This document shows, one piece after another, positions 12,448 to 57,289 of a stretch of DNA of 64,000 bases. The position numbers were made by a program, and so were the translations under genes. Location: the NCBI GenBank assembly GCA_049287025.1, contig JBAQFA010000009.1:24802-88801 (forward strand), read 5' to 3'. How positions within the stretch are numbered: position 1 is the first letter of the stretch; each line of letters opens with the position of its first letter. This DNA is from Candidatus Magasanikiibacteriota bacterium (lineage in GTDB: Bacteria > Patescibacteriota > Patescibacteriia > Magasanikbacterales > UBA922). Below the pieces are notes generated by a model that was not told where the DNA came from, ran no database searches, and saw nothing but the letters and a program-made list of their open reading frames with translations.

Positions 12448-12471
12448 TTTAACACTTTTTAAATCGTAAAC

Positions 12472-12500
12472 TTGACTTATCATATAAAATATAGTATAAA
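12472..12500 (+). promoter_or_regulatory. AT-rich promoter driving GC-rich cassette 1
   Basis: TTGACT (12472-12477), a 17-nt spacer, then TATAAA (12495-12500). ACTTGTTGTCTGTCG follows and resembles the CTTGTTCTGACG leader of the other cassettes. Confidence 0.45.
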
Positions 12501-12616
12501 TGTATGTCCGATAGACTTGTTGTCTGTCGTTTTGGTATATAAGGCAACTTTGCTTTGTTGTTGTGTGTGCTTGAGTGAACAACCATAATCCTTGGATGGG
12601 AGGTGAGACAGGGGAA

Positions 12617-13588
12617 ATGGCAAAGGATCTTTCGGAGAGAAAATTTCGAAGCACCGTGCGGTATGTGCGACGTCTATTGGGGGGTGGGACTGGTATTGTG
12701 ACTGCTCAACAGCTTCAGAAGGCTGGAAAACGAGCTCGCGGTCCTTTCTTTGACCCCAGAGACCATGGTCTGGTTCGTCCGTTCTTGGAGCGTGGAGCCG
12801 AAGAAGGACTCTGGGTGCTTGAGAACGGCGGTGGTCGGGCTGTCGTACCTGATGGTGTGTGGGAACAGTGGGATAGTCGTGGCGAGAGACGGCGTGAGGA
12901 ACGTCAGTCACAAGTTACGGCTCAAGCAGGAACCCGGCCAGCTTCAGTGCTGGCATCACTAGAGGAGGTCTCTATGACCGACGGTACGAAGAAGGGGGTG
13001 GGCGTATCCCCGAAAAATCCTATCTGGGTTTGGCTTCGGGCCAAGAAGGGTAGGTTGGGAGAGCTCATCGAGCTGTTCCAGGGGGTCCATGATGGTGCTC
13101 CGGTTCTCGCCAAGAAGGGTGGGGCTTTGAGTTTCCATTTTGCCCGCCCGCACCTAGTTCGGGGCCTGCAGAAGCTCGGGATGGAGCAGATCGACGATGG
13201 GTCAAAGATCCTGGCCACGGTCTTCTCCTACCTCGCCACGCCTGAGCAGGGGGTATTCGAGCGTGTGGGTTCTGGTGGGTACCCCCGCTACAAGCTCGGG
13301 CCGAAAGGGCAGAAGCTCTTGACCGAGGTCAGGAGCAGGGGCTCTGAGCCCATGCCACCGCCCGTTCCGTCCACGTCACCGACCGCTGCCCCCAGCCCGG
13401 GTGACCCGTTCGCCGAGGAGGAGGCCGCTCTCGTGGCCAAGCTCGAGGCGGTCCGTGCCAAACGCCGGCGCTTCATCGTGGTCGAGGACCTCGTGGTCAA
13501 GGCCATGAAGAAGGCCGGCATCGAGGGGACAGAGCAAGTTGAGTTCCTCAAGGCGCTCGTCAAAAAGCTCGGGGGTTCCTCCGAGTAG
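12617..13588 (+). CDS. GC-rich cassette ORF 1, unknown function (ORFan)
   Basis: This is a long ORF in a compositionally foreign block; the 60-nt line starting at 13321 contains 42 G+C. GGGAGGTGA lies upstream of the ATG at 12617, and the GTG at 12575 offered by the ORF track is unlikely. The protein has a Pro-rich linker and a C-terminal helical region. I recognise no family. Confidence 0.6.
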   Translation: MAKDLSERKFRSTVRYVRRLLGGGTGIVTAQQLQKAGKRARGPFFDPRDHGLVRPFLERGAEEGLWVLENGGGRAVVPDGVWEQWDSRGERRREERQSQVTAQAGTRPASVLASLEEVSMTDGTKKGVGVSPKNPIWVWLRAKKGRLGELIELFQGVHDGAPVLAKKGGALSFHFARPHLVRGLQKLGMEQIDDGSKILATVFSYLATPEQGVFERVGSGGYPRYKLGPKGQKLLTEVRSRGSEPMPPPVPSTSPTAAPSPGDPFAEEEAALVAKLEAVRAKRRRFIVVEDLVVKAMKKAGIEGTEQVEFLKALVKKLGGSSE

Positions 13589-13795
13589 TCAAATCTCTAG
13601 GCAGTCTTGACTGCCTACGACATCGTTCTTTCAACCTGTCCCGTTCGGGACACCAAAGTCAGGGAAGTGAGTATCACTCCACATCGGAGCGTACCTTCCC
13701 TGGCGCTCCATCAAAAGAACATCTCTAGTTAGGTGTTTTTTTGTTTAACATTGATTTTACAGATTTTAAAAAAGATTTTATTTTATAAAAATTAT

Positions 13796-14560
13796 TTATT
13801 TCAAACTGTTCCACAACATCTCCCAAACAAGACGTTGGTTATCAGCATTGGCTTGGTCTTCAATAATGACTAGGATCATACTCTCCCAAGAAACAGTCAT
13901 TACTCGATTGCCATAAATAACAGTGTGACTTTTGAATGATTTACCTTCGGGTAAAAATTTTACTTCACGTAATTCTTCTGTGGCACGTCTAGCTTCTAAA
14001 ATACCGGATTTGGATTTTTCCACAATTATTTTTGCTTTAACCCCTAATGAAATTCGTTCGTTGGTTAATTTTTTATACTCTTCTGGAAAAGTTGTTAATA
14101 GTTTTTCTGATGAACCATATACCAAATTTTCTTTTAGATTTACTTTGTGTCTAATCCTGTCTAGATAAGCATTCCATACATTTTTTCTACCCTCAAAATA
14201 TAATACTTTTGGTTTGTTGGCACCTTTGTTTTGTAAAGCCTCAAGTTCTGGTATTAGATCAGCAAAAAGTTGCTCTTTGTAACGAAGTGAATCCAAAAAT
14301 TTTTCTGGTTCCATGGCCACAAAATATCTTTTTCTGCCTTTGTTAACCACATTCATTAAGCCTTTAAGAATTAATTTTTCTATAATGTCGTATGTAGTTA
14401 CTCTATGTATGCCGGCTTTTTGAGCAATTGTCTGGACTGAAGCATGACCAAGCTCTAAGGTGGCTAAGTAAATTTCGGCCTCTTTGGCATCTAGACCAAA
14501 TTGTTGTAATTGATTAGGTAAAATCATAAAATGTTGTAGGAAAAGTTCTACATTTTTCAT
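13796..14560 (-). CDS. TrmB-family winged-helix transcriptional regulator (paralog 1)
   Basis: The N-terminal FGLDAKEAEIYLATLELGHASVQTIAQKAGIHRVTTYDIIEKLILKGL matches the TrmB wHTH pattern. The gene is low-GC. The start may be the internal Met at 14527. Confidence 0.8.
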   Translation of the reverse strand: MKNVELFLQHFMILPNQLQQFGLDAKEAEIYLATLELGHASVQTIAQKAGIHRVTTYDIIEKLILKGLMNVVNKGRKRYFVAMEPEKFLDSLRYKEQLFADLIPELEALQNKGANKPKVLYFEGRKNVWNAYLDRIRHKVNLKENLVYGSSEKLLTTFPEEYKKLTNERISLGVKAKIIVEKSKSGILEARRATEELREVKFLPEGKSFKSHTVIYGNRVMTVSWESMILVIIEDQANADNQRLVWEMLWNSLK

Positions 14561-20666: not shown

Positions 20667-21737
20667 ATGAATAATAAAAATATGCCAAAAAAAGAAGAAG
20701 ATATTAAATTAGGGGCGGCTCAGACTGCGATTGACCAAATTAAAGAAAAATATGGTGATGGAGCGATTATGAGATTTAGTGAATCACGCGCTATGGATGT
20801 GCCAGCTGTCTCCACTGGTTCAATCTCTCTTGATATTGCTCTTGGTGTCGGTGGTATGCCTAGAGGTAGAATTATAGAAGTATTTGGTCCAGAAGCCAGT
20901 GGTAAGACTACACTAGCACAACACATTGTATCTGAAGTACAAAAATTGGGGGGAATTGCTGCTTTTGTGGATGCCGAACACGCTCTAGACCCAGATTATG
21001 CTAGAAAGATTGGGGTGGATGTGGATAATTTATTAATTTCCCAACCTGACACTGGTGAACAAGCTCTGGAAATCGTGGAAACATTGGTTCGTTCTAATGC
21101 TGTGGATATTGTGGTGATTGACTCTGTCGCCGCTCTTGTACCAAAAGCAGAAATAGAAGGAGAAATGGGAGACTCACACATGGGTTTACAAGCTCGTTTG
21201 ATGAGTCAAGCTTTGCGCAAGTTGACTGGGATTGTTAGTAAAACAAAAACAATTGTGATTTTTATTAATCAGATCAGACATAAGATTGGTGTGTTTTTTG
21301 GCAATCCAGAAACGACAACTGGTGGTAATGCTCTAAAATTTTATTGTTCTGTACGGGTAGAAGTGCGTCGAGCTGCTCAGATTAAACAAGGTGATAAAAT
21401 TATTGGCAATCGGGTAAAAGTAAAAGTCGTAAAAAATAAAGTAGCCGCTCCATTCCGCACCACTGAATTTGATATCATGTATAATGAAGGCATCTCTCTA
21501 TCTGGAGATTTATTAGATACTGGTGTATTGCACAGAGTGATTAGTAAATCTGGTAATAGTTATGCTTATGGTGAAGAAAAACTTGGTGTTGGTAGAGAAA
21601 AAGCTAAACAATATTTACGAGAAAAGCCAGAATTGATGACAGAGGTTAAAGCCAAGATTTGGGAAGTGGTAAAAGCTGGTGAAGCTCCAGATGAGGAACA
21701 AGGTAATATTACTGATGATGTGAGTGTGGAAGAATAA
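20667..21737 (+). CDS. recA: Recombinase RecA
   Basis: [33 protein letters not shown] and FINQIR are canonical RecA motifs. Confidence 0.97.
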
Positions 21738-21780: not shown

Positions 21781-21806
21781 AAAAAGCGGGCTTAAACCCG
21801 CTTTTT
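21781..21806. terminator. Bidirectional intrinsic terminator (recA / ychF)
   Basis: aaaaagcgggcttaaacccgcttttt is a perfect GC stem flanked by an A-run and a T-run. Confidence 0.8.
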
Positions 21807-21836
21807 GTTATGTGATATGTGTCTCGTGTTATGTGT

Positions 21837-22913
21837 TTAAGTCGCCACATGGAAATATACCGTATCACCATCCTTAACAATATAATCTTTTCCTTCCAAT
21901 CTTAATTTTCCAGAAGTTTTGATTCCACTCCAACCACCATGTTCAACAAAATCTTTCCAATCACACACATCAGCTTTGATATAACCTTTTATAAAATCAG
22001 TATGAATCACCCCAGCCGCTTCTGGACCTTTGGCGCCAGACTTCACTGTCCAAGCTCTAGTTTCTGGTTCGCCACTGGTTAAAAATGTGACAAGGTTTAG
22101 TAATTTATAACTTTCAGTAATCAATTTATCCAAACCACTTTTTTCCATACCTAGCTCTTTCATATATTCTTTTAATTCTTCGCCATTCAGATCAGCTAGT
22201 TCTGCTTCCAATTTAGCACAGACAATAATTTGTGGAATACCTTCTTCTATCTGCGGAATTTGGGCATTCAAATTTGAAGTTTCATCTACATTTATTACAT
22301 AGAGCATGGGTTTCATAGTGAGCAAGTGCATGTCTTTCATTATGAGCATCTCATCTTCAGTGTATTCAAGCGCGCGCGCTGGTTTGCCAGCTTCTAGTTG
22401 TTTAAAAACTTTTTCTAAAACATCAATTTCTTTTTGCGCATCTTTCAAAGCTGTCCCCTTGGCGTTCTTTTTCGTTTTATCTAGGCGCTTACTCACAGTT
22501 TGCCAGTCGGCTAGGACTAATTCAAGATTTATTACCCCAGCATCTTCAGTTGGATCTACTTTGCCCGCCACGTGAATAATATTGTTATCAGTAAAATTTC
22601 TTACTACCTGAACAATAGCATCAGTTTCCCGAATGTGAGACAAAAATTGATTACCTAGGCCTTCACCTTCACTAGCGCCTTTGACTAGACCAGCAATATC
22701 ATAAAATTCTATGGCTGTTGGGATAATTTTTTTTGATTTAGAAACTTGAGCCAGTTTTTCCAACCGTTCATCTGGTACCTCAACAATCCCGATATTTGGT
22801 TCAATCGTACAAAAAGGATAATTTTGAGCATCAGCTTGTTTGCTACGAGTGAGAGCGTTGAATAGAGTAGATTTTCCTACATTGGGTAGGCCGACGATTC
22901 CAAGTGATAACAT
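21837..22913 (-). CDS. ychF: Ribosome-binding ATPase YchF
   Basis: The G1 motif is GIVGLPNVGKSTLFNALT. The protein is 358 aa with a C-terminal TGS-like domain. Confidence 0.95.
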   Translation of the reverse strand: MLSLGIVGLPNVGKSTLFNALTRSKQADAQNYPFCTIEPNIGIVEVPDERLEKLAQVSKSKKIIPTAIEFYDIAGLVKGASEGEGLGNQFLSHIRETDAIVQVVRNFTDNNIIHVAGKVDPTEDAGVINLELVLADWQTVSKRLDKTKKNAKGTALKDAQKEIDVLEKVFKQLEAGKPARALEYTEDEMLIMKDMHLLTMKPMLYVINVDETSNLNAQIPQIEEGIPQIIVCAKLEAELADLNGEELKEYMKELGMEKSGLDKLITESYKLLNLVTFLTSGEPETRAWTVKSGAKGPEAAGVIHTDFIKGYIKADVCDWKDFVEHGGWSGIKTSGKLRLEGKDYIVKDGDTVYFHVAT

Positions 22914-28082: not shown

Positions 28083-28107
28083 TGTATAGGATATTGTAGA
28101 CAATAAT

Positions 28108-28172
28108 ACAAAATACAATATACACGGAGCAAAATACAAAATCTATGTTGTTGTTTGTATATTGTATTTTGT
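28108..28172. repeat. Perfect 17-bp inverted repeat (palindromic element, second copy at 53548-53626)
   Basis: acaaaatacaatataca (28108-28124) faces tgtatattgtattttgt (28156-28172). Confidence 0.7.
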
Positions 28173-28177
28173 TTTTG

Positions 28178-28248
28178 TGGACCTAGGCAGAATCGAACTG
28201 CCGTCTCAGCAATGCGAATGCTATATATTACCACTATACTATAGGCCC
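28178..28248 (-). tRNA. tRNA-Ala (CGC)
   Basis: The reverse complement reads gggcctatagtatagtggtaa...tagca-ttCGCat-tgctg...ggcagttcgattctgcc-taggtcc-a, with G3:U70. Confidence 0.85.
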
Positions 28249-28373: not shown

Positions 28374-29123
28374 TTATTTTATCTCTGGGCAATGATCCCA
28401 CATAAATTTAAACCAGGTTTTATAGCTAGTGGCCAGTGGACGACTAATATTTACAAAAATGGTAATATCGTCACTAATCTTTGTTATTCCGGCGCCAGTA
28501 AAAGACACAACATGATCACCAAAAATGTCTACCATTGAAGGCGTAGAATATTCTTTAGGTAGGTATTTGTAAGGTTTACCTACGGCTTTTGGTACATGAG
28601 GAGCTTGTTTTAGTACTTCAAAATCAAATAAATGTTTATATTTAATACCTCGACGATCCGCATCAACTAAAAATTTATCCAAAAAGGTATTGAGTCTTGG
28701 GTCGAACCAGGCTCCCTTGGCGCCAATACAATAAACATCTTCTTTAGTAGATAATACATCACGAAGAAAATTTTTAAATCCTTCCAGACCTTTATATATG
28801 TAGGCAGCCTCTAAAACAGGATGTTTTTGGTATTCGTGCATCAAGTGTGGCATTTCTTTTTCTAGCCTAGTACGTTTTTCATCAACCAGTTCCATTAGCT
28901 TGGCTGGTTCCACTGGTTTAAATAAAGTGTCGCCATGCCCAATAACTTGAAACACTAAACCTTTTTCAATTAAGCGATTCATTGAGTCATAAATATTCCG
29001 GCGATGAATTTTACTTTTTTTTGAAATATTAGAAACCGTAGTTTGTTTTTCTTGTAAAAGTGTTTCGTAAATTTTGGCTTCGTTTATTGACAATCCTAGT
29101 TCTGTTAAAATTTGGCTATACAT
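28374..29123 (-). CDS. TrmB-family wHTH transcriptional regulator (paralog 2)
   Basis: The N-terminus is LGLSINEAKIYETLLQEKQTTVSNISKKSKIHRRNIYDSMNRLIEKGLV. The gene is low-GC and divergent from GC-rich cassette 2. Confidence 0.8.
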   Translation of the reverse strand: MYSQILTELGLSINEAKIYETLLQEKQTTVSNISKKSKIHRRNIYDSMNRLIEKGLVFQVIGHGDTLFKPVEPAKLMELVDEKRTRLEKEMPHLMHEYQKHPVLEAAYIYKGLEGFKNFLRDVLSTKEDVYCIGAKGAWFDPRLNTFLDKFLVDADRRGIKYKHLFDFEVLKQAPHVPKAVGKPYKYLPKEYSTPSMVDIFGDHVVSFTGAGITKISDDITIFVNISRPLATSYKTWFKFMWDHCPEIK

Positions 29124-29170
29124 AGCAAAAATATATTAAAGTGGTGTGAAGCCACACCACGTGGTGGTAT

Positions 29171-29198
29171 TTGCCACTCTTTATATATTATATATAAT
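29171..29198 (+). promoter_or_regulatory. Promoter of GC-rich cassette 2
   Basis: TTGCCA (29171-29176), a 16-nt spacer, then TATAAT (29193-29198). GCCTTGTT follows and is the shared start of the leader. Confidence 0.45.
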
Positions 29199-29515: not shown

Positions 29516-30103
29516 ATGCGTACAATGTTAGTCGCGTTGCTGTCGCTGGTGCTGTTTTCAAGTATTGCTCAGGCCGAAACCTACAACACCAGGTTGCTCC
29601 TGCACGGTCACAAGACCGTCGGTGAGGGATTCGGAGTCGCGGGTTGGGTGATTGCGCCCAACATCACAAGCGTACCGAACAAGTGGGTAACCCTCGTCGG
29701 CCCGTGCTACGATGGACAGGGGTGGGGTGTAGAATTGTTGGCAGGAGCGGTTGTTTCTGGTGGCGAGAGCAAGTTTCTTGTAGATGTCAGAATAACGTTC
29801 ACTCCAAAATTCTTCGGCATCCCCTTGAACACCTGGCACAACTTCCAGTGGATTCGAACCGGAGGCTCTGGCACGGGTTACTGGTATGGACAGGTTGACT
29901 GGGTGTTGCCACTCGGACTTGGACTTCTCGGTACAGAAACCGAGAACACGTTCAACGTGAGTGGCAATGACTGGTCAGTCGCGCCTCACGTCGTGATCTC
30001 TTTCGGTGATCACTTCGCGCTAGTGTTCGCTCCACAAGCTCATTTCAATGCACGTGGCTACACTGGCACGCAAGCGTGGGTTCGTACGGTCGTGAGTCAC
30101 TAG
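29516..30103 (+). CDS. GC-rich secreted protein, unknown function (cassette 2)
   Basis: AAGGAGG lies 5 nt upstream of the ATG. The Sec signal peptide is MRTMLVALLSLVLFSSIAQA/ET. The mature part is Gly/Trp/Val-rich with an alternating, beta-like pattern. The 60-nt line starting at 29581 contains 36 G+C. Confidence 0.7.
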   Translation: MRTMLVALLSLVLFSSIAQAETYNTRLLLHGHKTVGEGFGVAGWVIAPNITSVPNKWVTLVGPCYDGQGWGVELLAGAVVSGGESKFLVDVRITFTPKFFGIPLNTWHNFQWIRTGGSGTGYWYGQVDWVLPLGLGLLGTETENTFNVSGNDWSVAPHVVISFGDHFALVFAPQAHFNARGYTGTQAWVRTVVSH

Positions 30104-30177
30104 TCGTTCTTTTATAGGGGGGAGGACTTACTTGAGACTAGTCATCTCACGTGGACCGGCACGTAAAAATCCGGGAT

Positions 30178-30197
30178 TCTAGTTAGTACTAAGTAGA
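30178..30197. repeat. 20-bp near-perfect palindrome TCTAGTTAGTACTAAGTAGA (cassette 3' boundary)
   Basis: The half-sites tctagttag and ctaagtaga match at 8 of 9 positions. An identical copy lies at 31851-31870 and a half-site lies at 13725-13733. A hairpin-and-T-run terminator follows at 30202-30232. Confidence 0.7.
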
Positions 30198-30254
30198 TAT
30201 CAAAAAACCACGCCTCATCGGCGGGTTTTTTGTTTACTTTGGGTAATTTATGAT

Positions 30255-31049
30255 TTATTTTTTCTTTTTGGCAAGTTGAGAGAGTGGTACGGCCGTATTC
30301 CAAGCTAGTTCATATAGCGCTTTTAGAATTTTTACCAAAGATGTACTTTCTATCATTACACCAATTTTGTGTGGTTTATGAGTGACGAAGACAATTTTTG
30401 ATTCAAAAATATTAATTTCACCAAAAAAGTCCTCAATTCCTGGTAGTTGATTAGGTTTAAGCCATTTAATATGAGTATAAGTCATTGATCCTTTATAATT
30501 CGTCATCCAAGTTCTAGCTGTAGGTGTATCCAAAGCAATAATACGTTCATGAATTTTACGTTTACTGCGTTCACGATTATAGCCTTCACCCCAAGTTTTG
30601 AATTCCGGCCAACTCCAGCCTTCAAAATCGGCAATAGAAAGAATTTCGGTTTTTGAATCTAAGCTCTCCCAATAAATATTTTTTAAACCCTGGGTACCTT
30701 CTTGATATTTGATAACTGGCTTTTCGGCAAACTTATAAATCGAAAATAATTTTGGTAAAACTTTTTCTACATTTAATAATTTATCTTCCCATTGCTTTTT
30801 TTTGTTTTTAATATGTTGAACCAGACGCCCTGGATTTTCCGAAGTATAAATCATTTTCGATCCTTTGCCAGTCGCGCGATCTACCAAACCATACCAACCT
30901 AACTTTTCCAAAGCATAATAACCAAGCGTTCGGTTGATACCAGCTTTTTTGGTTATCTCGGCTACAGTAGCAGGACCAAGTTCGAGCAAGGCTAAATATA
31001 CTTTGCCTTCGGTTTCATCTAAACCTAATTGACTGATTAAATCTTTCAT
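30255..31049 (-). CDS. TrmB-family wHTH transcriptional regulator (paralog 3)
   Basis: LGLDETEGKVYLALLELGPATVAEITKKAGINRTLGYYALEKLGWYGLV. It is clearly homologous along its full length to the ORFs 31929..32732 and 48975..49763. Confidence 0.85.
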   Translation of the reverse strand: MKDLISQLGLDETEGKVYLALLELGPATVAEITKKAGINRTLGYYALEKLGWYGLVDRATGKGSKMIYTSENPGRLVQHIKNKKKQWEDKLLNVEKVLPKLFSIYKFAEKPVIKYQEGTQGLKNIYWESLDSKTEILSIADFEGWSWPEFKTWGEGYNRERSKRKIHERIIALDTPTARTWMTNYKGSMTYTHIKWLKPNQLPGIEDFFGEINIFESKIVFVTHKPHKIGVMIESTSLVKILKALYELAWNTAVPLSQLAKKKK

Positions 31050-31301: not shown

Positions 31302-31727
31302 ATGAAAAGGTGCATCAAGGCTCCGGGAATTAACGCTTTCAGTGGCGAGGGTGAAGTGGGGAAGTTAGAAGATGTCCCCGGAAAACAAGGTTGCCTTCCA
31401 TTTGATCCTAGTCCGGCCGTAGGGGGTTGGATGAAGGACGACAATTGTAAAGTGGAGGCACCACCAGAGGGGTGCACGCTCGAAGTGCCCGAAACGATCC
31501 TATGCCCCAATGGAAAAAACATCCCAGCTGGAAAGTACAAGGTGGGAAAACTGCCTGATGACAAGATTCTGCATCGCTATCATGATCACGTTCTGCCCCT
31601 CACCGATGAGAAGGGGGTCACCCGGCATTATTGCATTGAAAGTTCCGGTAGGCATGTCGACTGGTCGGGATGCGTCTGCATCTTGATTCGTGTGGAGACG
31701 CGCGAAGAGCGACTGCTGATTCAGTAG
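31302..31727 (+). CDS. GC-rich Cys-rich protein, unknown function (cassette 3)
   Basis: GGAGGG lies 6 nt upstream of the ATG at 31302, and the GTG at 31281 from the ORF track is rejected. 141 aa with 8 Cys. I recognise no family. Confidence 0.65.
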   Translation: MKRCIKAPGINAFSGEGEVGKLEDVPGKQGCLPFDPSPAVGGWMKDDNCKVEAPPEGCTLEVPETILCPNGKNIPAGKYKVGKLPDDKILHRYHDHVLPLTDEKGVTRHYCIESSGRHVDWSGCVCILIRVETREERLLIQ

Positions 31728-31792
31728 CCATAAATTAAGGGGGGCAAGACGTAGTCTGGATTCGTCAACCAGTCCACCTGCCGGAGAGGTAG

Positions 31793-31818
31793 GCGTAGGC
31801 CGGCGCGTGAGCTCGGCA
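31793..31818 (+). repeat. Conserved cassette 3' motif GCGTAGGCCGGCGCGTGAGCTCGGCA (REP-like)
   Basis: Near-identical 26-mers occur at 31793-31818, 33336-33361, 34176-34201, 34799-34824 and on the minus strand at 47677-47702. Each lies within 100 nt downstream of a GC-rich ORF stop. Confidence 0.85.
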
Positions 31819-31850
31819 CCGTGCGCCCGACACATTCAAAACGGGCAAAT

Positions 31851-31870
31851 TCTAGTTAGTACTAAGTAGA
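31851..31870. repeat. Second copy of palindrome TCTAGTTAGTACTAAGTAGA + terminator
   Basis: It is identical to 30178-30197. The hairpin aaaaaaccacgc...gcgcggtttttt follows. Confidence 0.7.
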
Positions 31871-31928
31871 TAACAAAAAACCACGCCCTATCAGCGCGGT
31901 TTTTTGTTTGTTTTGAATAATTTATAAA

Positions 31929-32732
31929 TTATTTTTTCTTTTTACTAGTTTTAGCAAGCGGTGTAGCTGTAATCCACGCCAGTTCAAAAATCGCTTTTAA
32001 AATATTAGATAAAGCCGTGCTTTCTATAATTATGCCAATAGGGATTGGTTTCTTGAATAAAGCCATCATTACTTTATTATCATAAATATTAATTTCACCA
32101 CCTAAATCTTTGATAGTTGGTACTTGTTCGGGTTTTATCCAGCGATAATTAATATATTTTTTTGATCCTTGATAATGTTTCATCCAATCTCTTCCTTCGG
32201 GTGTATCTAAAACCAAAACGCGTTCAGAAATTTTTCTTTTACTACGTTCGCGGGTATATTCTTTGCCCCATTTAAAAAGATTAAACTCTGGTGTATACCA
32301 AGCTTGCAAATCCAAGACTGATAAAATTTCTGATTTGGCTTCTAAAGTTTCCCAATAAATATTTTTGGCACCCTCAACACCTTCTTGAAATCTAACGCTG
32401 GGTTTTTCGGCCACGGTATAGAGTAAATAAAAATCTGGCAATTGTGATTCTAATTCTTTTTCTTTTCTTTCCCAAGTATTAATTTTTGATTTTACAAAAT
32501 GTTTTAAATTTTTGGGATCTTTGGCTACAAATTGAATGCGTTTCTTTTGTCCAGAAGAACGATTGACTAGGCCAAACCAACCAAGTTTTTCTAGGGCATG
32601 ATAACAAAGGGTGTGACCAATGCCAGCTTTGCGGGCAATGGCGCTGGCGCCAGAAGGTCCAAGTTGTAAAAGGGCAATATAGACTTTGGCTTCTGTTTCT
32701 TCAAAGCCAATGCTTTTAAGAATTTCTAACAT
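31929..32732 (-). CDS. TrmB-family wHTH transcriptional regulator (paralog 4)
   Basis: IGFEETEAKVYIALLQLGPSGASAIARKAGIGHTLCYHALEKLGWFGLV. The C-terminus LKAIFELAWITATPL...KKKK parallels that of paralog 3. Confidence 0.85.
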   Translation of the reverse strand: MLEILKSIGFEETEAKVYIALLQLGPSGASAIARKAGIGHTLCYHALEKLGWFGLVNRSSGQKKRIQFVAKDPKNLKHFVKSKINTWERKEKELESQLPDFYLLYTVAEKPSVRFQEGVEGAKNIYWETLEAKSEILSVLDLQAWYTPEFNLFKWGKEYTRERSKRKISERVLVLDTPEGRDWMKHYQGSKKYINYRWIKPEQVPTIKDLGGEINIYDNKVMMALFKKPIPIGIIIESTALSNILKAIFELAWITATPLAKTSKKKK

Positions 32733-32875: not shown

Positions 32876-32904
32876 TTGACATACTCCATAATCTAATGCA
32901 TAAT
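32876..32904 (+). promoter_or_regulatory. Promoter of GC-rich cassette 4
   Basis: TTGACA (32876-32881), a 17-nt spacer, then CATAAT (32899-32904). The architecture matches the minus-strand promoter at 48721-48749. Confidence 0.55.
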
Positions 32905-32906: not shown

Positions 32907-32946
32907 CTTGTTCTGACGATCGAGGATTGGCCTTGAGAGTTGGACG
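32907..32946 (+). promoter_or_regulatory. Conserved cassette 5' leader (CTTGTTCTGACGATCGAGGAT..CCTTGAGAGTTGGACG)
   Basis: It matches 48718-48679 (minus strand) at 37 of 40 positions and is closely similar to 48294-48258 (minus strand). It contains the hairpin TCGAGG-N5-CCT(C/T)GA. The C-to-T change keeps a G:U pair, and the loops differ. Confidence 0.7.
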
Positions 32947-32963: not shown

Positions 32964-33311
32964 ATGGCCGAAGAGCACGAGGTACGGTGTGATAACTGCG
33001 CCCACCACCACGTAGGAAGCGGGGGTTGTTTCGGCAAAGTAGAGAGCAGGTTCCCCATGTACGATTTTCATAGAGGAGTAAAATACTGCATGTGGGGGGG
33101 GACCCCCAGCCGAATTGTGACCTTTTCTAGATTGAAGGGGTGCCCGCTGGGTGTGGAGTTTGTGCCACTCCGCTGGTGTGGTACCTGTGGCAACTTGGTC
33201 CAAACGGACCAAGGGTGTGCTCACCGGTTGGAGGGTTGCGAGGACCCCAGCTACAGGTGCTGGAAGATTCACCCCGACCTCAAGGAGGGTATGAGACAAC
33301 AGTACCTCTAG
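32964..33311 (+). CDS. GC-rich Cys/His-rich protein, unknown function (cassette 4, ORF a)
   Basis: GGGAGGG lies 4 nt upstream of the ATG at 32964. 115 aa with CDNCAHHH, CGTCG and other Cys pairs that suggest metal binding. I recognise no family. Confidence 0.65.
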   Translation: MAEEHEVRCDNCAHHHVGSGGCFGKVESRFPMYDFHRGVKYCMWGGTPSRIVTFSRLKGCPLGVEFVPLRWCGTCGNLVQTDQGCAHRLEGCEDPSYRCWKIHPDLKEGMRQQYL

Positions 33312-33335
33312 ACTACCCACCTATGGGTTAAACAG

Positions 33336-33447
33336 GCGTAGGCCGACGCGTGAGCTCGGCATTCCATTTTTGTCCAAAATATTATTTTTTGCATAAAGAT
33401 GGAGGCGCTCTTTAAAAACAAACAATCCGCACTGGTGGTGTTGGTTG
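33336..33447 (+). repeat. Inter-cassette junction repeat, copy A (~112 nt)
   Basis: The 3' motif is followed by the AT hairpin ccatttttgtcc...gcataaagatgg (33364-33402). CGCTCTTTAAAAACAAACAA and CACTGGTGGTGTTGGTTG follow that. It aligns along its full length with 34176-34285. Confidence 0.8.
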
Positions 33448-33480
33448 AAGAGATATAGTTCTGACTTAACGGAGGCTAGA

Positions 33481-34149
33481 ATGGGATACGACCCAAACCA
33501 AATGGCCCAAAGGTATTTGAGGGTCGACTGGGCCGACGTGAAGGGCTATGCCGCTTACGCGGTAGAGTCCACGTTCGGGGACCAAGTACCACCACCCATA
33601 AAAAGGAGACTCGAGGTATTGGACGGTATAAGGGACAAGGAAGGTCCCGAAGCCGCCTGTCTCGAGGCAGCAAGGATCGAATGTGAATGCCAAGTCGTTC
33701 AGGAGAAAAGAACTGAACGACGGCAGTGGAGAACGGGAGACGACCCATACAAATATGGGTCTTCGTTCTCTTCGAAGTTTGTCATCATAGATTATAATGG
33801 TGAAAAAAGATTCTACATCGCTCATAATTGGCATATGCAGGCCGTTTTCGTTTTCGCCAAAATTCTGGTGGATAGAAATAAAAAAGTCGATTTTCACGTT
33901 CTGGGTGGGGGGTGGTTCCGTGCTAATCATCCCCTAACTGTTGGCGGTTTTAGCGGTGATTTTAGCTCGTTCAAAATCTCTGACTTGAGTGAGGCGTTGG
34001 GTGGGCTTGAATTCACCGACAAAGATCCCGGTGATTGGCGCACGAATTCCATGCGTGCCACCCATATTGATTGGGCTTTTATCGAAAAAGCCCGTGACTC
34101 CTCTGAGAAATACAGGGAGGTATGGAAACGGATCTTTGAGGAGGAATAA
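33481..34149 (+). CDS. Unknown-function protein (cassette 4, ORF b)
   Basis: AGTTCTGAC (33457-33465) precedes GGAGG, which lies 5 nt upstream of the ATG at 33481. The TTG at 33445 from the ORF track is rejected. 222 aa. I recognise no family. Confidence 0.6.
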   Translation: MGYDPNQMAQRYLRVDWADVKGYAAYAVESTFGDQVPPPIKRRLEVLDGIRDKEGPEAACLEAARIECECQVVQEKRTERRQWRTGDDPYKYGSSFSSKFVIIDYNGEKRFYIAHNWHMQAVFVFAKILVDRNKKVDFHVLGGGWFRANHPLTVGGFSGDFSSFKISDLSEALGGLEFTDKDPGDWRTNSMRATHIDWAFIEKARDSSEKYREVWKRIFEEE

Positions 34150-34175
34150 TAGACGTAATCTGATTTCGTCAATCA

Positions 34176-34285
34176 GCGTAGGCCGGCGCGTTAGCTCGGC
34201 ATTCCATCTTTGTATAAAAATAATTTTATATAAAGATGGTTGTCGCTCTTTAAAAACAAACAACTAACACTGGTGGTGTTGGTTG
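34176..34285 (+). repeat. Inter-cassette junction repeat, copy B (~110 nt)
   Basis: See copy A. The hairpin ccatctttgtat...atataaagatgg lies at 34204-34239. Confidence 0.8.
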
Positions 34286-34339
34286 GTGATATATAAAAAG
34301 GACTGGTGGCGGACACAACCCTTGGAGAAGGAGTTGAAA

Positions 34340-34759
34340 ATGAGTACTGTCAAGATACTCATCATCGACGACGGTGATGAGAAAGTCGATCGACTGAAAG
34401 GTTATGATCGACTTGGCCACCTCCATGGTGTGGAGGTGGTACGCCGATGGAATTTTAATTCGGCTCTTAAGGAAGGGCCGTACGCGTTTAATGATTTGGA
34501 GCAAACAAAGTTTGACGTGATTATTTTGGACTTTACACTGCCAATGGACAGATTCGGTCATGAGATCTTGGATAAAATTAGACACAGTCCCAGGTTTATT
34601 ATTAACGAAAGAACGGTAGTAATTGGCATTTCCACAGAGTGGAAACGTCTATTACAATATGATTTCGGTTTGAATCTTGCGATCTACAAGGAGGAAACGA
34701 TGGCTGACGAACTGGAAACAGCCATCAAGTCCTTCGTCGCCACTGGCAAAGTCAAATAA
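34340..34759 (+). CDS. Stand-alone CheY-like receiver (REC) domain protein (cassette 4, ORF c)
   Basis: AAGGAG lies 6 nt upstream of the ATG at 34340. KILIIDDG, the putative phospho-acceptor in DVIILDFTLP, and VVIGIST fit a receiver fold. There is no output domain, and no kinase lies in the window. Confidence 0.65.
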   Translation: MSTVKILIIDDGDEKVDRLKGYDRLGHLHGVEVVRRWNFNSALKEGPYAFNDLEQTKFDVIILDFTLPMDRFGHEILDKIRHSPRFIINERTVVIGISTEWKRLLQYDFGLNLAIYKEETMADELETAIKSFVATGKVK

Positions 34760-34798
34760 TTTGGGGAGGGAAAGACGAAGCTTGGGATTTGTCACCCA

Positions 34799-34824
34799 AC
34801 GTAGGCCGGCGCGTGAGCTCGGCA
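34799..34824 (+). repeat. Cassette 3' motif copy (ACGTAGGCCGGCGCGTGAGCTCGGCA), end of the array
   Basis: It matches the 26-mer consensus at 25 of 26 positions. It is preceded by AGACGAAGCTTGGGATTTGTCACCCA, which resembles the sequence preceding the copies at 31793 and 34176. Confidence 0.8.
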
Positions 34825-34959
34825 ATCTCCTTTTTCGCGAAAGAAAGAGCAAAAAAGATCCAGTAAAACTGGGCTTTTTTGTTTGTGGATAAAATAGTTG
34901 ACAATGTGTCTAATATCGTGTATAGTATATAATATATTATAAACTATATACTATAAACT

Positions 34960-35484: not shown

Positions 35485-35799
35485 ATGAGCATTGTTTTTC
35501 TTGATGATGATGTGGAAAATTTTATTTATAGTCTAGAAAATAAAACAAAAGCTAAGGTTTTGCGAACGTTGGATTTGCTAGAAGAGTTTGGTTATAATCT
35601 GGGCATGCCACATACAAAAAAGATTAAAAATAATCTTTTTGAATTGAGAGTATTGGGTAGAAATCAGGTGCGATTATTTTATACATTTTTAAAACCAAAT
35701 ATAATTGTTTTGTGTGGCTTTAGAAAGAAGACTCAGAAAATTCCTAGTCATGAATTGGAGAAAGCCCTGCATAAATTAAAGTTGCTTGACAAGATATAA
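35485..35799 (+). CDS. HigB/Gp49-like (RelE/ParE superfamily) toxin
   Basis: 104 aa. The pattern ...LEEFGYNLGMPHTKKIKNNLFELRV...VRLFYTF...IIVLCGFRKKTQKIP is typical of phage Gp49/HigB-type toxins. The antitoxin gene follows immediately. Confidence 0.7.
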   Translation: MSIVFLDDDVENFIYSLENKTKAKVLRTLDLLEEFGYNLGMPHTKKIKNNLFELRVLGRNQVRLFYTFLKPNIIVLCGFRKKTQKIPSHELEKALHKLKLLDKI

Positions 35800-35822
35800 C
35801 ATATATGTTATATTATAAATGT

Positions 35823-36095
35823 ATGAAAAATTACAATAAAATTAAATCAGAAATATTAAAAGACCCTAAGTTCAAAAAAGTCTATGACGATCTTGAGCCA
35901 GAATTTGAATTGGCTCGGCAAATTATTAAAAAGCGTTTGGAATTAGGTTGGTCTCAGTCAGAATTGGCTAGAAAAATGGGTACCAAGCAGTCGGCTATTG
36001 CCAGGTTGGAGTCTGGCGGATATAATCCAAGTATGGCTTTTTTGCAAAAAACAGTTAAGGCATTAAAGGCCGATTTACAGATAATTATTAGTTAA
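35823..36095 (+). CDS. XRE-family HTH antitoxin (HigA-like)
   Basis: The HTH is LGWSQSELARKMGTKQSAIARLESG. I chose the start ATG at 35823 (MKNYNK...). Confidence 0.7.
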   Translation: MKNYNKIKSEILKDPKFKKVYDDLEPEFELARQIIKKRLELGWSQSELARKMGTKQSAIARLESGGYNPSMAFLQKTVKALKADLQIIIS

Positions 36096-47476: not shown

Positions 47477-47676
47477 TTTTTGGTTTGATGACTGTTTACG
47501 TACTAATTACGAAACTTACGAATCTACGAAACTACCATTGTTAAATTGCCACATTGTTAAATTGTTAATGATACACACAGAAGAAAGTCTGTTAATGTAA
47601 ATTTTACGGAAATTAAACAAAAAATCCCTTCCTAAATGGTTGGGATTTTTTTGTCTCGTTTGTCGACAAGTCGAGA

Positions 47677-47702
47677 TGCCGAGCTCACGCGCCGGCCTAC
47701 GC
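47677..47702 (-). repeat. Cassette 3' motif copy (minus strand)
   Basis: The reverse complement GCGTAGGCCGGCGCGTGAGCTCGGCA is an exact match to the copy at 31793. On the minus strand it is followed by the terminator hairpin atccc...gggat and a T-run (about 47615-47652). Confidence 0.85.
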
Positions 47703-47784
47703 CTATTTAATCCATAGATGGAGTGCCACTTTTGAATGTGTGTGGCGCACAGTGAAGAGGTGTGGAACAAGCCGGCCATGTTTA

Positions 47785-48228
47785 TCAGATTTTGAATTCC
47801 TGATAAATCCTGGCCAGCACCTTTGCAGCCGTATGAACTCGTTCCAGGATGTTCGTGAGTGCGTCGGAGAATTCGTGCCACTCCCAGACAGTCTCTTCCC
47901 CGTCACTTTTCAGGTTGTAGCTACCCATCATGGCGGCAAACACTTGGTAGGCGTTAACGCTTCGGCCTGTTTTTTCCCCACGCAGTATACTGCCGTGTAT
48001 GTGTTGCGCGTAGTTTTCAAGCCACTCAACCAAATCTTCGTTCCCCTCTATTTTCTGTAGAAGCTGGTCTGCGATTTGATCAACGCTTTCCTTACAACAC
48101 TCTTCATCTGCGTCAAGTCGTAAGTACAGGCAAACGATGGCGATCAGATTGGGTGGAAGGTCATAGCATCCCTCAGGATAAGTCCTGAGCATAGGCTCGC
48201 CTTCTCCCCAGCTAGAAAGGTAGAGCAT
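47785..48228 (-). CDS. Unknown-function acidic helical protein (cassette 5, ORF b)
   Basis: AGGAGG lies 6 nt upstream of the ATG at 48228. 147 aa. I recognise no family. Confidence 0.6.
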   Translation of the reverse strand: MLYLSSWGEGEPMLRTYPEGCYDLPPNLIAIVCLYLRLDADEECCKESVDQIADQLLQKIEGNEDLVEWLENYAQHIHGSILRGEKTGRSVNAYQVFAAMMGSYNLKSDGEETVWEWHEFSDALTNILERVHTAAKVLARIYQEFKI

Positions 48229-48257
48229 CACTCACCTCCTTGTTTACAAAGAACGTT

Positions 48258-48294
48258 GTCCAACTTTCGAGGTACATCCTCGATTGTCAGAACT
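48258..48294 (-). promoter_or_regulatory. Conserved cassette 5' leader copy (AGTTCTGACAATCGAGGATGTACCTCGAAAGTTGGACA)
   Basis: This is the third copy of the leader, at an internal (intercistronic) position. The hairpin is TCGAGG-atgta-CCTCGA. Confidence 0.7.
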
Positions 48295-48385
48295 TCCTCC
48301 ATCTTTATACAAAAAATATTTTGGACAAAGATGGAAGGCCCGGCGCTTTGTTGACGCGCGGCCGGGCGAAGCGTGGCGGAGTGTG
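48295..48385 (-). repeat. Inter-cassette junction, short version
   Basis: On the minus strand, the GC hairpin gcccggc...gccgggc occupies the place of the 3' motif. The AT hairpin ccatctttgtccaaaatattttttgtataaagatgg (48334-48299) follows and is nearly identical to 33364-33402. It then runs straight into AGTTCTGAC. Confidence 0.7.
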
Positions 48386-48652
48386 TTACTCCTTGGGTGT
48401 GGAGAGGTGGAGAAAGTGGCGGATTTTTTGCCAGAAGATTTTGTTGGCTTCTATTCCGGCTTCCTTTTTCGCTCGAGCCTCCCTGATGCCCTTGTTCCTT
48501 TCGAGGCCACACTGGGGGCAGTAGGACATGTGAGGTAAGAGTTCATTTCCACACAGGCATTGTGGAAGAGCAACTCTCTTTACACCACAATATTGACAGA
48601 ACTCTGAGTATCCCACGTGACTACACATCGGGCACAGCCTACTCTCAAGCAT
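48386..48652 (-). CDS. Double zinc-ribbon protein (cassette 5, ORF a)
   Basis: GGAGG lies 5 nt upstream of the ATG at 48652, and the TTG at 48685 from the ORF track would fall inside the conserved leader. CPMCSH...CQYCG and CLCG...CPQCG form two Cys4 ribbons. The C-terminal tail is basic. Confidence 0.65.
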   Translation of the reverse strand: MLESRLCPMCSHVGYSEFCQYCGVKRVALPQCLCGNELLPHMSYCPQCGLERNKGIREARAKKEAGIEANKIFWQKIRHFLHLSTPKE

Positions 48653-48974: not shown

Positions 48975-49763
48975 ATGGAAAAAAATAATTTAGAAAAATT
49001 AATAGATTTGGGTCTACAAGAAAATGAAGCCAAAATATATTTGGCTTTGTTGGAATTGGGAAAAGGCAATGTGACCGAAATTAGTCGGCGCGCAGGATTG
49101 AACCGGACGACGGGTTATGATATTTTGGAACGTCTTGGTTTACATGGTATGGTGAACCGCGCCAGAGTGGGTAGTAAAAAAATTATTTATGTGGCCGAAC
49201 CGCCATCACATTTGCGTCAGTACTTGGAAGACAAAAAACGCGCCATGGAAAGACGGATGGAAGAATTAAATGATTTGTTGCCAGATTTGCAATCACTTTA
49301 TAAAACTGATATTAAACCAGTTATAAAATTTGCCGAAGGGAAAAGTGAAATGCAAAAATTGTATTTGAATGTTTTGGATGCGAAGAGTGAAGTTTATTCA
49401 ATTCTTAATTTAAAAGGTTATGCCGAAGTTTTTGATGAACTGGGTGCTTATCAATCCAAAGAACGACATAAAAAAGGCATAAAAGAAAAAGTTTTGGCTA
49501 TAAAAAATGATACCGCTCTGTGGTGGTATAATAAAACTTATAAAAATAAAACTGCCAAGGATAAAAAGTTAACCGAATATCGCTGGCTAGAAGATGCGGA
49601 AAAGTATTCTACCGCCGGAGAAGTAAATATTTTTGATGATAAAGTAATTGGTGTATTATCCAAACCAAGTGAAAATGTGGCATTTGAAATTCAATCACAG
49701 ACATTTGCGGATTTTTTGAAATTAGTTTTTGAAATGGCGTGGAAGAATAGTGAACAAAAATAA
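48975..49763 (+). CDS. TrmB-family wHTH transcriptional regulator (paralog 5)
   Basis: LGLQENEAKIYLALLELGKGNVTEISRRAGLNRTTGYDILERLGLHGMV. It is homologous to paralogs 3 and 4 and divergent from cassette 5. Confidence 0.85.
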   Translation: MEKNNLEKLIDLGLQENEAKIYLALLELGKGNVTEISRRAGLNRTTGYDILERLGLHGMVNRARVGSKKIIYVAEPPSHLRQYLEDKKRAMERRMEELNDLLPDLQSLYKTDIKPVIKFAEGKSEMQKLYLNVLDAKSEVYSILNLKGYAEVFDELGAYQSKERHKKGIKEKVLAIKNDTALWWYNKTYKNKTAKDKKLTEYRWLEDAEKYSTAGEVNIFDDKVIGVLSKPSENVAFEIQSQTFADFLKLVFEMAWKNSEQK

Positions 49764-53547: not shown

Positions 53548-53626
53548 ACAATATACAAAATACAAATAATAATATTAAAAAATATTTTGTATTTTGTTAC
53601 GTGTATATTGTATTTTGTTTTTATGG
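53548..53626. repeat. Palindromic AT-rich element, second copy
   Basis: tgtatattgtattttgtttttatgg (53602-53626) matches 28156-28180 at 24 of 25 positions. The nested inverted arms acaatataca / tgtatattgt and acaaaatacaaa / tttgtattttgt are present. Confidence 0.65.
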
Positions 53627-55813: not shown

Positions 55814-56224
55814 ATGATTGATAATCAAACAAAAGAGAAATTCATCGAATTAAGAGCACAAGGAAAAAGTTATAACACAATCTCTAAAGAGATTGGTGTA
55901 AGCAAACCCACACTTATTCAGTGGAGTAGAGAGTTTGTGGACGAAATTTCCAATCTTAAAGCAATAGAATTTGAAGATTTACAAGAAAAGTATTATATAC
56001 ACAAAAGAAAAAGAATAGAAATTTTTGGCACACAACTGGAAGCCATAAAGCAGGAACTTTCTTCAAGAGATCTAAAAACAATTTCAACTGAAAGGCTTTT
56101 GGATTTATTGGCTAAATTTACGACGGTATTGAAAGCAGAAGAAACAACTATAAACTTTACTACAAAAGTCAGTCCCGTTGATGATTATTTAGATCTATCA
56201 GTTGTAAAAAATTGGATTGGATAA
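55814..56224 (+). CDS. HTH-domain protein (resolvase/terminase-small-subunit-like HTH)
   Basis: FIELRAQGKSYNTISKEIGVSKPTLIQWSREF is a typical three-helix HTH. A coiled coil follows. Confidence 0.55.
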   Translation: MIDNQTKEKFIELRAQGKSYNTISKEIGVSKPTLIQWSREFVDEISNLKAIEFEDLQEKYYIHKRKRIEIFGTQLEAIKQELSSRDLKTISTERLLDLLAKFTTVLKAEETTINFTTKVSPVDDYLDLSVVKNWIG

Positions 56225-56341
56225 AATATTACCAAAACTTTACTATTTTTTGACCGAGATATTCAAAGAAAGTATATATTGCTTTTATCTCGTTTTTATG
56301 ATAATATAGCGGTACTAAACATTCAGTAGACTTATAATTTT

Positions 56342-57085: not shown

Positions 57086-57088
57086 AAT

Positions 57089-57289
57089 ATGAATAATAAT
57101 TACTCGCAACAGTCTGCCCAGACAGCAGGTTCAAATGACTCTGGTTATTTTGCAAAACAAAATAATTCTACAGTAACGAGTGATTATATAACTAAAACCA
57201 AGGAAACAGCTGAATTTGTAGTTGTTAATGGTTCAGGTTATTCACAAAGACAGGCAAGAATTGTGAAAAGTAAATATGTTAGAAAGTAA
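57089..57289 (+). CDS. Small hypothetical protein
   Basis: 66 aa, tightly packed between neighbours and overlapping the next ORF by 14 nt. Confidence 0.35.
   Translation: MNNNYSQQSAQTAGSNDSGYFAKQNNSTVTSDYITKTKETAEFVVVNGSGYSQRQARIVKSKYVRK

Follow-up and report, generated by a model that had tools for sequence, protein, structure and literature searches.

A modular repeat between the cistrons of a small-protein operon in Candidatus Magasanikbacteria: a candidate intercistronic RNA element based on a REP-like hairpin

The stretch of DNA analysed here, referred to as the window (64,000 nt of contig JBAQFA010000009.1, assembly GCA_049287025.1, positions 24,802 to 88,801), is a low-GC segment (36% GC) of the chromosome of a member of Candidatus Magasanikbacteria (Patescibacteria, or candidate phyla radiation, CPR), and it contains the housekeeping genes dnaA, dnaN, recA, polA and ftsK as well as genes for a penicillin-binding protein (PBP) and an H+-PPase. 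Within it lies an operon of three small cargo genes, here called C, D and E, and each of the two junctions between these genes holds one copy of a repeated block of about 120 nt. A first reading of the letters alone (the sequence-only reading) had described this block as an inter-cassette repeat at a position like that of the attC sites of integrons. The analysis reported here indicates that the block is not an attC-like site, and that it is rather probably, if far from certainly, an intercistronic RNA element that acts in stability or processing inside the C-D-E operon and is based on a hairpin resembling repetitive extragenic palindromic (REP) sequences.

Results

Architecture of the C-D-E operon and of the repeated block

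The C-D-E operon extends on the plus strand from a sigma-70 promoter at 32876-32904 (TTGACA-17-CATAAT, 11 of 12 matches in the promoter scan) to an intrinsic terminator at 34851-34881, in the order leader, C, junction 1, D, junction 2, E and 3' tail, and its promoter is divergent from a TrmB-family gene at 31929-32732 (minus strand). Gene C (32964-33311; GC content at third codon positions, GC3, of 0.68) encodes a Cys-rich protein of 115 aa, for which only four matches were found among 1.8 billion representatives; homologs in two relatives, the loci L001 (48% identity) and L018, share a conserved Cys framework. Gene D (33481-34149), which is flanked by the two copies of the block, encodes an orphan protein of 222 aa, the sole match of which among 5.8 billion proteins is the protein itself. 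It has no Pfam, PADLOC or PHROG match, and its AlphaFold2 model is poor (mean pLDDT 46.6), too poor to search with. Gene E (34340-34759) encodes a receiver-domain-like protein of 139 aa with a weak match to Pfam Response_reg (E 3e-4, below the gathering score), which is 33% identical over its full length to the second cargo gene of L018.

The two junctions (33312-33480 and 34150-34340) contain neither a terminator-like site nor a promoter that reaches 10 of 12 matches, and the A.U hairpin that they share has neither a GC-rich stem nor a U tract. The junction is thus not a terminator-promoter spacer, as both the intrinsic terminator and the sigma-70 promoter are missing, and this suggests that C, D and E would most simply be carried by a single transcript.

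In a global alignment the two full copies of the block (33336-33457 and 34176-34295, both plus strand) are 84-89% identical from GCGTAGG through GATATA, with two small indels; they align end to end, as had been claimed, and the homology is about 10 nt longer than stated before. A repeat search gave 89% identity for 33336-33379 versus 34176-34219 and 87% for 33406-33457 versus 34244-34295. The order of the modules is also the one proposed earlier, namely core, AT hairpin, CGCTCTTTAAAAACAAACAA and CACTGGTGGTGTTGGTTG in both copies. The core occupies 33337-33361 and 34177-34201, and the second module, the AT-rich or A.U hairpin, occupies 33362-33404 (10 bp and 5 bp, to which two outer pairs may be added) and 34204-34239 (16 continuous bp). 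The third module (33406-33447 and 34244-34285) is an A-rich tract (CGCUCUUUAAAAACAAACAA) overlapping a G.U-rich hairpin (33423-33447 and 34261-34285); CGCTCTTTAAAAACAAACAA is located at 33406-33425 and 34244-34263, and CACTGGTGGTGTTGGTTG ends at 33447 and 34285. In junction 1 the block is followed, at 33458-33475, by the first 8 nt of the leader (GTTCTGAC) and the GGAGG ribosome-binding site of gene D.

A shorter version is present on the minus strand in the F-G unit, which comprises a promoter (48749-48721), a leader, gene F (a zinc ribbon), the short junction, gene G and a 3' tail. The short junction (48296-48367) consists of a GC hairpin (48367-48338) and the A.U hairpin (48338-48296), to which a complete 36-nt leader (GTTCTGAC...GTTGGAC, 48293-48258) is joined after two nucleotides (AA), inside the operon and without the 50-nt segment. 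The sequence-only reading had described the nearly unchanged AT hairpin, its direct connection to the next module and the lack of the 50-nt segment, which is confirmed, and is in need of correction on one point, as the GC hairpin is a divergent variant and not the canonical 3' motif. The description of the junction as modular was likewise confirmed, since the common modules are arranged in the same order at three junctions, and the block does sit between consecutive open reading frames (ORFs). A small ORF in the junctions (ATGGAGGCG...) was considered and rejected, because it encodes 19 aa in junction 1 and its frame is lost in junction 2 (5 aa). The A.U hairpin and the 50-nt segment, that is, the block beyond the core, will be called the linker.

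Two small interchangeable elements follow the stop codons and lie outside the repeated block. PK-b (33316-33336), a small hairpin or pseudoknot just 5' of the core, has a stem that covaries in five copies (CTAT/ATAG, TTGT/ACAA and CTGT/ACAG). PK-a (34152-34176), which starts 3 nt past the stop codon of D, is a candidate H-type pseudoknot of 25 nt (GACG..CUGAU..CGUC..AUCAG). Its general pattern is GACG-N4-CUGG-AUU-CGUC-AA-CCAG, and both stems covary across six copies, with the variants GACG/CGUC, GACU/AGUC and GACG/UGUC in stem 1 and CUGG/CCAG, CUGAU/AUCAG, UUGGG/CCCAA and CAGGA/UCCUG in stem 2; these pairs were tabulated by a script, and a MAFFT alignment puts one copy out of register.

Core and leader at the ends of the cargo units

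The core is a GC hairpin that carries a GTAG tag, a bulged C and a GUGA loop (CGUAG-GCCGR-C-GC-GUKA-GC-YCGGC-A), which folds as (((((.((....))))))) with -10.4 to -11.3 kcal/mol, the stem having only 5+2 bp. Its 24-nt pattern was found in five copies in the window and in none of 100 shuffles, and all five copies are located 3' of cargo ORFs, in two cargo islands, and are oriented with transcription. Across ten copies from four genomes, 22 of the 25 positions are invariant, and the single variable pair is G.U in six copies, A-U in two and G-C in two, and never A/C. In units B, C-D-E and F-G the core comes after the final ORF, and it also ends three units in L001, one in L002/L004 and one in L006/L010. 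No other family of hairpins with GTAG and a stem was found in the window.

The end of the C-D-E operon (34774-34881) is composed of PK-a (34774-34799), the core (34800-34824), a pre-terminator hairpin (34827-34849) and the intrinsic terminator, and the same core-hairpin-terminator tail ends all three modules seen in L001. On the minus strand, the F-G operon ends (47618-47746) with an ACAC-loop hairpin, PK-b, the core (47701-47677), a pre-terminator hairpin and a terminator, and the end of cargo unit B (31748-31906, plus strand) carries PK-a, a PK-b-like element, the core (31794-31818), an ACAC-loop hairpin and a terminator.

Two further hairpins were observed in these 3' regions. One is situated just 5' of each unit terminator (34827-34849, 47654-47676, 31846-31866 and 30183-30203 in the window, 4842-4864 in L002 and about 8245-8270 in L006), and each of these pre-terminator hairpins contains a perfect palindrome of 10 nt that differs from the others and follows the pattern TTNNN-NNNAA; five were seen (TTTCGCGAAA, TTGTCGACAA, TTGTGCACAA, TTGAGCTCAA and TTAGTACTAA). 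The other is the ACAC-type hairpin, a portable hairpin of the 3' untranslated region (UTR) found at 31825-31846, 47725-47746 (minus) and 30150-30180, and in L002 (4715-4770), L006 (8280-8320) and L020 (8625-8655). Its stem covaries (GCCCG/CGGGC, GCCAC/GUGGC and GCCGG/CCGGC) around a conserved loop (ACACAUUCAAAA), it may stand before or after the core, and in L002 and L006 the loop carries a further inserted hairpin.

A hairpin of the 5' leader (GUUCUGAC...GUUGGAC, 32910-32945, plus strand) is located at the predicted transcript start of the C-D-E operon and has -14.2 kcal/mol in sense versus -2.9 in antisense orientation. The leader recurs at 48715-48680 and 48293-48258 (minus strand), as well as in L001, L004, L006 and L010. 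It lies 5-6 nt past the -10 hexamer of the unit promoters at 32876-32904 and 48749-48721, and it is similarly placed in L001 and L010. An interpretation of the leader as a hammerhead (CUGANGA) was rejected after a check by eye, as CUGACAA stands in the third copy and the register of GAAA does not fit.

Conserved structure in the sense strand

RNAalifold, applied to the two full copies of the block, predicted 32 pairs, none of which is broken: five one-sided changes are retained as G.U or A-U pairs, and one pair is changed on both sides, from C-G to U-A, and is thus compensatory. The A.U hairpin has a conserved G.U pair in all three copies and one U.G/C-G change among them, and three of the four differences between the copies of the G.U-rich hairpin keep the pairing through wobble. 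Covariation is also found in PK-a, PK-b, the ACAC hairpin and the variable core pair. A covariance model of the A.U hairpin gave 64.9, 65.1 and 65.3 bits at junction 1, junction 2 and the minus-strand junction, respectively, versus 16-25 bits in antisense orientation; in a search of 193 kb (the window and relatives) no further copy was found, with at most 25 bits elsewhere. With five copies of the core pattern against none in 100 shuffles, and about 65 bits for the A.U model against at most 25, the repeat is not the product of chance.

The folding energies differ between the strands. For the AT hairpin the sense/antisense values are -14.5/-7.9, -17.0/-14.0 and -19.8/-15.0 kcal/mol, for the G.U hairpin -8.8/-2.8 and -13.5/-7.7 kcal/mol, and for the whole junctions -45.2/-33.6, -47.6/-38.6 and -58.9/-52.8 kcal/mol, so that each module, the leader and all three whole junctions have a sense advantage of 1.5 to 12 kcal/mol. 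The z-scores of the whole-junction folds relative to shuffles are -2.9, -5.6 and -6.4. It is the wobble pairs that make the structure strand-specific. As the substitutions keep the pairing and the sense strand folds better, the block is read as a structure of the sense transcript; the strand bias points to this transcript, although single-stranded DNA of the top strand is formally an alternative. In a comparison with Rfam 15, tRNAs alone reached the gathering score in the window, and E-value searches of the islands and of junction 1 remained at chance level.

Distribution and gene content in relatives

Among 185,579 species genomes the core pattern was found in one, that of Candidatus Magasanikbacteria UBA11710 (L001), which has three copies on one contig. 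The metagenomes yielded three true loci of one organism (L002/L004/L006/L010), while four further matches (L003, L005, L007 and L008) were discarded as chance occurrences in GC-rich coding DNA, and in viral contigs no match was found for the core, the leader or the 20-nt A-rich segment. Within the window and the relatives compared, the linker was found only at the three junctions of the window, without further copies.

The relatives differ from the window in the genes between leader and core. L001 has units of the same kind beside the same tRNA genes, in another order, and its C homolog is followed directly by PK-b, the core, the pre-terminator hairpin and the terminator, without the A.U hairpin, D or E. 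In L006/L010 a regulator with 91% identity and the same leader drive a different Cys-rich gene, which ends in PK-b and the core, and this single unit is located between the tRNA genes and rmuC. L018 has a regulator with 73% identity, and there a C-family gene of shorter length adjoins the E homolog across a plain spacer of 35 nt, without a junction; spacers between cargo genes in the relatives are 15-35 nt long. C and E are therefore old partners, between which D and a copy of the junction stand in the window. The claim that the block marks a difference in gene content thus holds, as the orphan D, lying between the copies, separates two genes that are adjacent in L018. The number of cargo units at the tRNA-rmuC locus also differs, being three in the window, at least three in L001 (in a different order), one in L010 and one in L017.

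Three assemblies of the population (L009, L025 and L027) are 100% identical to the window wherever each covers it, and possibly stem from the same sample. The two junction copies differ by 12-16%, and no recent event is therefore visible. In L001, the sequence after the core is 100% identical over about 100 nt in two unit ends (1900-2020 and 3440-3555, minus strand), and the third unit end, which is cut off by the end of the locus, matches over the approximately 25 nt that are visible, which points to concerted evolution, or gene conversion, between units.

TrmB-linked cargo units and the genome setting

The repeat is found in one of three sites of the window at which a TrmB-family regulator gene adjoins a GC-rich cargo unit. 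The regulator genes are located at 13796-14560, 28374-29123, 30255-31049, 31929-32732 (minus) and 48975-49763 (Pfam TrmB, E 2e-13 to 3e-16); the label of the gene at 31929-32732 is taken from the Pfam annotation of its protein record, and its paralogs match Pfam TrmB directly. Regulator and cargo unit are divergent in four of five cases, and the cargo promoter is a near-consensus sigma-70 promoter with 11 of 12 matches. The exception is the regulator at 13796-14560, which is convergent with, and downstream of, the cargo unit at about 12470-13740. The small cargo genes have no informative matches in Pfam, PADLOC or PHROG. Their GC3 is 0.43-0.68 (12617-13588, 29516-30103, 31302-31727, 32964-34759 and 47785-48652), compared with 0.25-0.30 in neighbouring genes. 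Orthologs of a 195-aa cargo gene in distant Magasanikbacteria (L020, 8001-8591; L023, 8001-8585) have a GC3 of 0.66-0.81 beside AT-rich regulators, and the GC-richness of the cargo is therefore old and maintained and not the mark of a recent transfer.

The sequence-only reading had connected the junctions with a GTGGTGG word at 29152-29172. The word exists, but as part of a perfect palindrome, CCACCACGTGGTGG (29152-29169), and not as a module of the junctions. The palindrome overlaps the -35 hexamer in the first cargo unit's promoter (29171-29198), and it has been kept upstream of the orthologous genes in L020 (about 7905-7935) and L023 (about 7880-7910). It is a probable operator of the adjacent TrmB paralog.

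Several other features of the window were observed. A toxin-antitoxin pair (35485-36095; a Gp49/HigB-like toxin gene and an HTH_3 antitoxin gene) is situated between the cargo island and rmuC, and it is absent at the corresponding position of L010 and L017. The start of the window, with dnaN, dnaA and rnpA at 723-4535 and a 40-nt inverted repeat at 4061-4146, is probably near the replication origin. Intergenic repeats rich in CACATAT/CACATAA (695-721, 6246-6280, 7060-7086, 8688-8722 and 21802-21837) lie downstream of several housekeeping genes, and an AT-rich hairpin-forming repeat is present at 28105-28182 and 53566-53628, one copy of which abuts the 3' end of a tRNA-Ala gene while the other precedes a Na+/H+ exchanger gene. 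Nothing relevant was found in literature searches on TrmB in Magasanikbacteria or on integrons and attC in Patescibacteria.

Discussion

The block as an intercistronic RNA element

REPs are defined by a conserved GTAG tetranucleotide followed by an imperfect palindrome of 20-50 nt with a bulge (Corneloup et al. 2021, PMC8266576; Di Nocera et al. 2013, PMC3733652), and in the GTAG-3 layout an unpaired GTAG precedes an imperfect palindrome that is short and GC-rich, contains a bulged base and has a GC/GC-flanked loop of 4 nt (PMC3733652); about 600 REPs are present in E. coli (PMC8266576). The core has the structure that defines a GTAG-tagged REP, it is located 3' of ORFs, between unidirectional or convergent genes, and its G.T pairs suggest a role as RNA. 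In addition, the junction combines the core with other short motifs as a mosaic, in the manner of bacterial interspersed mosaic elements (BIMEs). Unlike REPs and BIMEs, the core has a very low copy number and is confined to cargo units (five copies in 64 kb, three in the only matching species genome), its copies never alternate in orientation but all point along transcription, the ORFs of the window that were scanned with Pfam include no gene for a REP-associated tyrosine transposase (RAYT), the stem is limited to 5+2 bp, and the host is a CPR bacterium.

REPs stabilise the upstream mRNA in operons such as malEFG, and hairpins between cistrons (Rhodobacter puf, E. coli pap, malEFG) protect the upstream RNA from 3' exonucleases and may also be endonuclease sites that uncouple the fates of the cistrons. 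Unlike these hairpins, which are single-locus, one multi-hairpin cassette recurs here at three junctions, and its first module is also found at the 3' end of every unit. Other families of short modular hairpin repeats, such as pneumococcal BOX, the Correia elements of Neisseria and the enterobacterial ERIC/IRU sequences, alter mRNA stability or are cut by RNase III. The block is likewise short, modular, hairpin-forming and intergenic or intercistronic. However, those families have tens to hundreds of copies and terminal inverted repeats, and Correia elements have target-site duplications, whereas the block has three copies, no target duplication and no dispersal. It also does not behave as a miniature inverted-repeat transposable element of the Correia or ERIC type, as the flanks of the A.U palindrome differ between copies, no target is duplicated and only three copies exist. 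Thus, the block would be a new low-copy, cargo-linked case within the broad class of co-transcribed palindromic intergenic repeats.

If the block is an intercistronic RNA element, the spacer would act, in the sense transcript, as a succession of hairpin modules that are independent of one another. The first of these would be the small pseudoknot or hairpin just past the stop codon. The core, which closes every cargo transcription unit in the clade, would probably be a protective 3' structure and/or a protein-binding site, and the A.U hairpin of 15-18 bp, which occurs only between cistrons, might be the entry site of an RNase III-like double-strand endonuclease or a structural insulator. The A-rich tract and the G.U-rich hairpin, or the full leader hairpin in the minus-strand copy, would then form the 5' UTR of the next cistron. 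Cleavage of the A.U hairpin would give each cistron the same protected 5' (leader) and 3' (core) ends as single-gene units have. It should be noted that the stabilising role and the cleavage are proposed by analogy with REPs and other intercistronic hairpins. The presence of two copies could be explained if the orphan D brought one copy of the spacer with it when it arrived between the old partners C and E, most likely by RecA-type homologous recombination between spacer copies; a recA gene is present at 20667-21737.

Four points weigh against this interpretation. Wobble pairs of the G.T type also stabilise hairpins in single-stranded DNA of the same strand. The covariation in the linker rests on very few substitutions, as two full copies and one short copy from one genome are available. 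The A.U duplex, with 15-18 bp, is short by the standard of canonical RNase III substrates. Finally, the core is near-invariant while the flanking genes have diverged, which argues for sequence-specific recognition by a partner, possibly on DNA.

Alternative explanations

One alternative is that the linker, in distinction from the core, has no function and is a by-product, the leftover of a fusion of units that was copied along with D and is tolerated. The linker modules are present at three sites of this genome only, the relatives manage with spacers of 15-35 nt, and the leader fragments (the 8-nt GTTCTGAC, and the full leader in the F-G junction) look like former 5' ends, all of which would be expected of such a remnant. 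Nevertheless, every substitution in a stem between the copies preserves pairing while loops and linkers have changed freely, and the A.U hairpin, including the conserved G.U pair, is retained in the third copy, which lies on the opposite strand in another operon. An origin as a by-product is therefore unlikely.

A second alternative is that the junction is a recombination site at the DNA level, in which the core, with or without the A.U palindrome, is recognised as single-stranded DNA by a recombinase encoded elsewhere, so that units of an ORF and a site are moved in the manner of attC cassettes; candidate enzymes would be Y1 HUH enzymes (of the RAYT or IS200/IS605 type) or tyrosine recombinases. 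In agreement with this idea, direct repeats of the block flank D, which none of the relatives compared has, cargo units at the tRNA-rmuC locus vary in order and number between genomes, and L006 and the window have different cargo between the same leader and core. The core also has the GTAG and the bulged stem of the REPs that are cleaved by TnpA-REP (PMC8266576, PMC3733652), and it is conserved like a recognition site of a protein.

The likeness to attC sites in particular is limited. In both cases the sites lie between ORFs on the same strand that have no consensus promoters of their own, form hairpins and have an unpaired base in the stem (the bulged C of the core), and the gene content between the block copies differs from that of relatives. 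However, an ordered RYYYAAC...GTTRRRY pair within 40-150 nt is not found in any junction or island on either strand, and isolated 7-mers of the attC core type occur at chance frequency and in the wrong order. Neither a tyrosine recombinase (Phage_integrase) nor a Y1 transposase (Y1_Tnp) is encoded among the 50 Pfam-scanned ORFs of the window. Their only recombinase is a large serine recombinase (58805-60442, with Resolvase, Recombinase and Zn_ribbon_recom domains). The block also lacks the arrangement of IntI, attI and Pc, and the heads of the units are TrmB-family regulators with their own promoters. Furthermore, the coding (top) strand of the block folds better, whereas in attC it is the bottom strand that folds, and the core of the block is invariant in sequence, whereas among attC sites it is the structure that is conserved while the sequence varies. 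In four defining respects the block departs from attC outright. Integron cassettes also excise as circles, so that populations differ in their cassettes; the assemblies available for this comparison are the three identical ones, which possibly stem from one sample. Thus, of the original description as attC-like, the position between consecutive ORFs stands, while a likeness beyond position is not supported, and the block is not an attC-like site.

The serine recombinase gene was observed at the end of an AT-rich stretch (55814-60698, 29% GC) beside genes for tRNA-Pro, tRNA-Phe and tRNA-Ala. This stretch is probably an integrated element, and no link between it and the cargo units was seen.

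For a recombination site at the DNA level in general, the lack of these enzymes among the 50 Pfam-scanned ORFs counts against the idea, the one serine recombinase belonging to its own AT-rich element, as do the better folding of the top strand, the very low copy number with a single relative in the scan of species-representative genomes, the identity of the three assemblies where they cover the window, and the 12-16% difference between the junction copies. Moreover, homologous recombination between the repeats accounts for the same patterns. A dedicated recombination site is therefore improbable.

A bolder version of this idea would be that leader and core delimit portable transcription-unit cassettes of lineage-specific, persistently GC-rich small-protein genes, which in Magasanikbacteria are taken up, exchanged and strung together behind TrmB-controlled promoters by a recombinase that is encoded elsewhere and recognises the single-stranded core, the A.U linker being a scar or adaptor that joins cassettes. 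We regard this as a long shot; if true, it would represent a gene-cassette system without integron integrase in a CPR phylum.

Finally, it is very improbable that the junction is regulatory DNA, that is, an internal promoter or an operator of one of the TrmB-family regulators by which D and E would be transcribed apart from C: in both copies a weak 9/12 match (TCGGCA-17/18-TATTAT/AATAAT) does span the core's end and the loop of the hairpin, the A.U element shares its palindromic form with operators, and the junction sequence CACTGGTGGTGTT resembles half of the probable operator CCACCACGTGGTGG, but this likeness is partial, the unit promoters all have 11/12 matches while the junction match is at the scan threshold (shuffles give about 15 per 6.7 kb) and is missing from the minus-strand junction, the spacing of TTGGTT to any -10-like hexamer is wrong, and the conserved G.T position leaves the palindrome asymmetric as DNA and paired as RNA.

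Implications

As an intercistronic RNA element, the block would add an example from the CPR to the mosaic hairpin repeats of the REP-like type, which is useful for annotation, is not surprising, and has an interest that is local and not general. Of greater interest than the repeat itself is its setting. It consists of TrmB-regulated units that encode lineage-specific small proteins with a GC3 of about 0.5-0.8, compared with about 0.27 genome-wide, the mRNAs of which are predicted to begin and end with conserved hairpins and the gene content of which differs between close relatives. If these conserved ends were recombination sites or unusual signals of mRNA handling, they would bear on how accessory genes vary in reduced episymbiotic bacteria.

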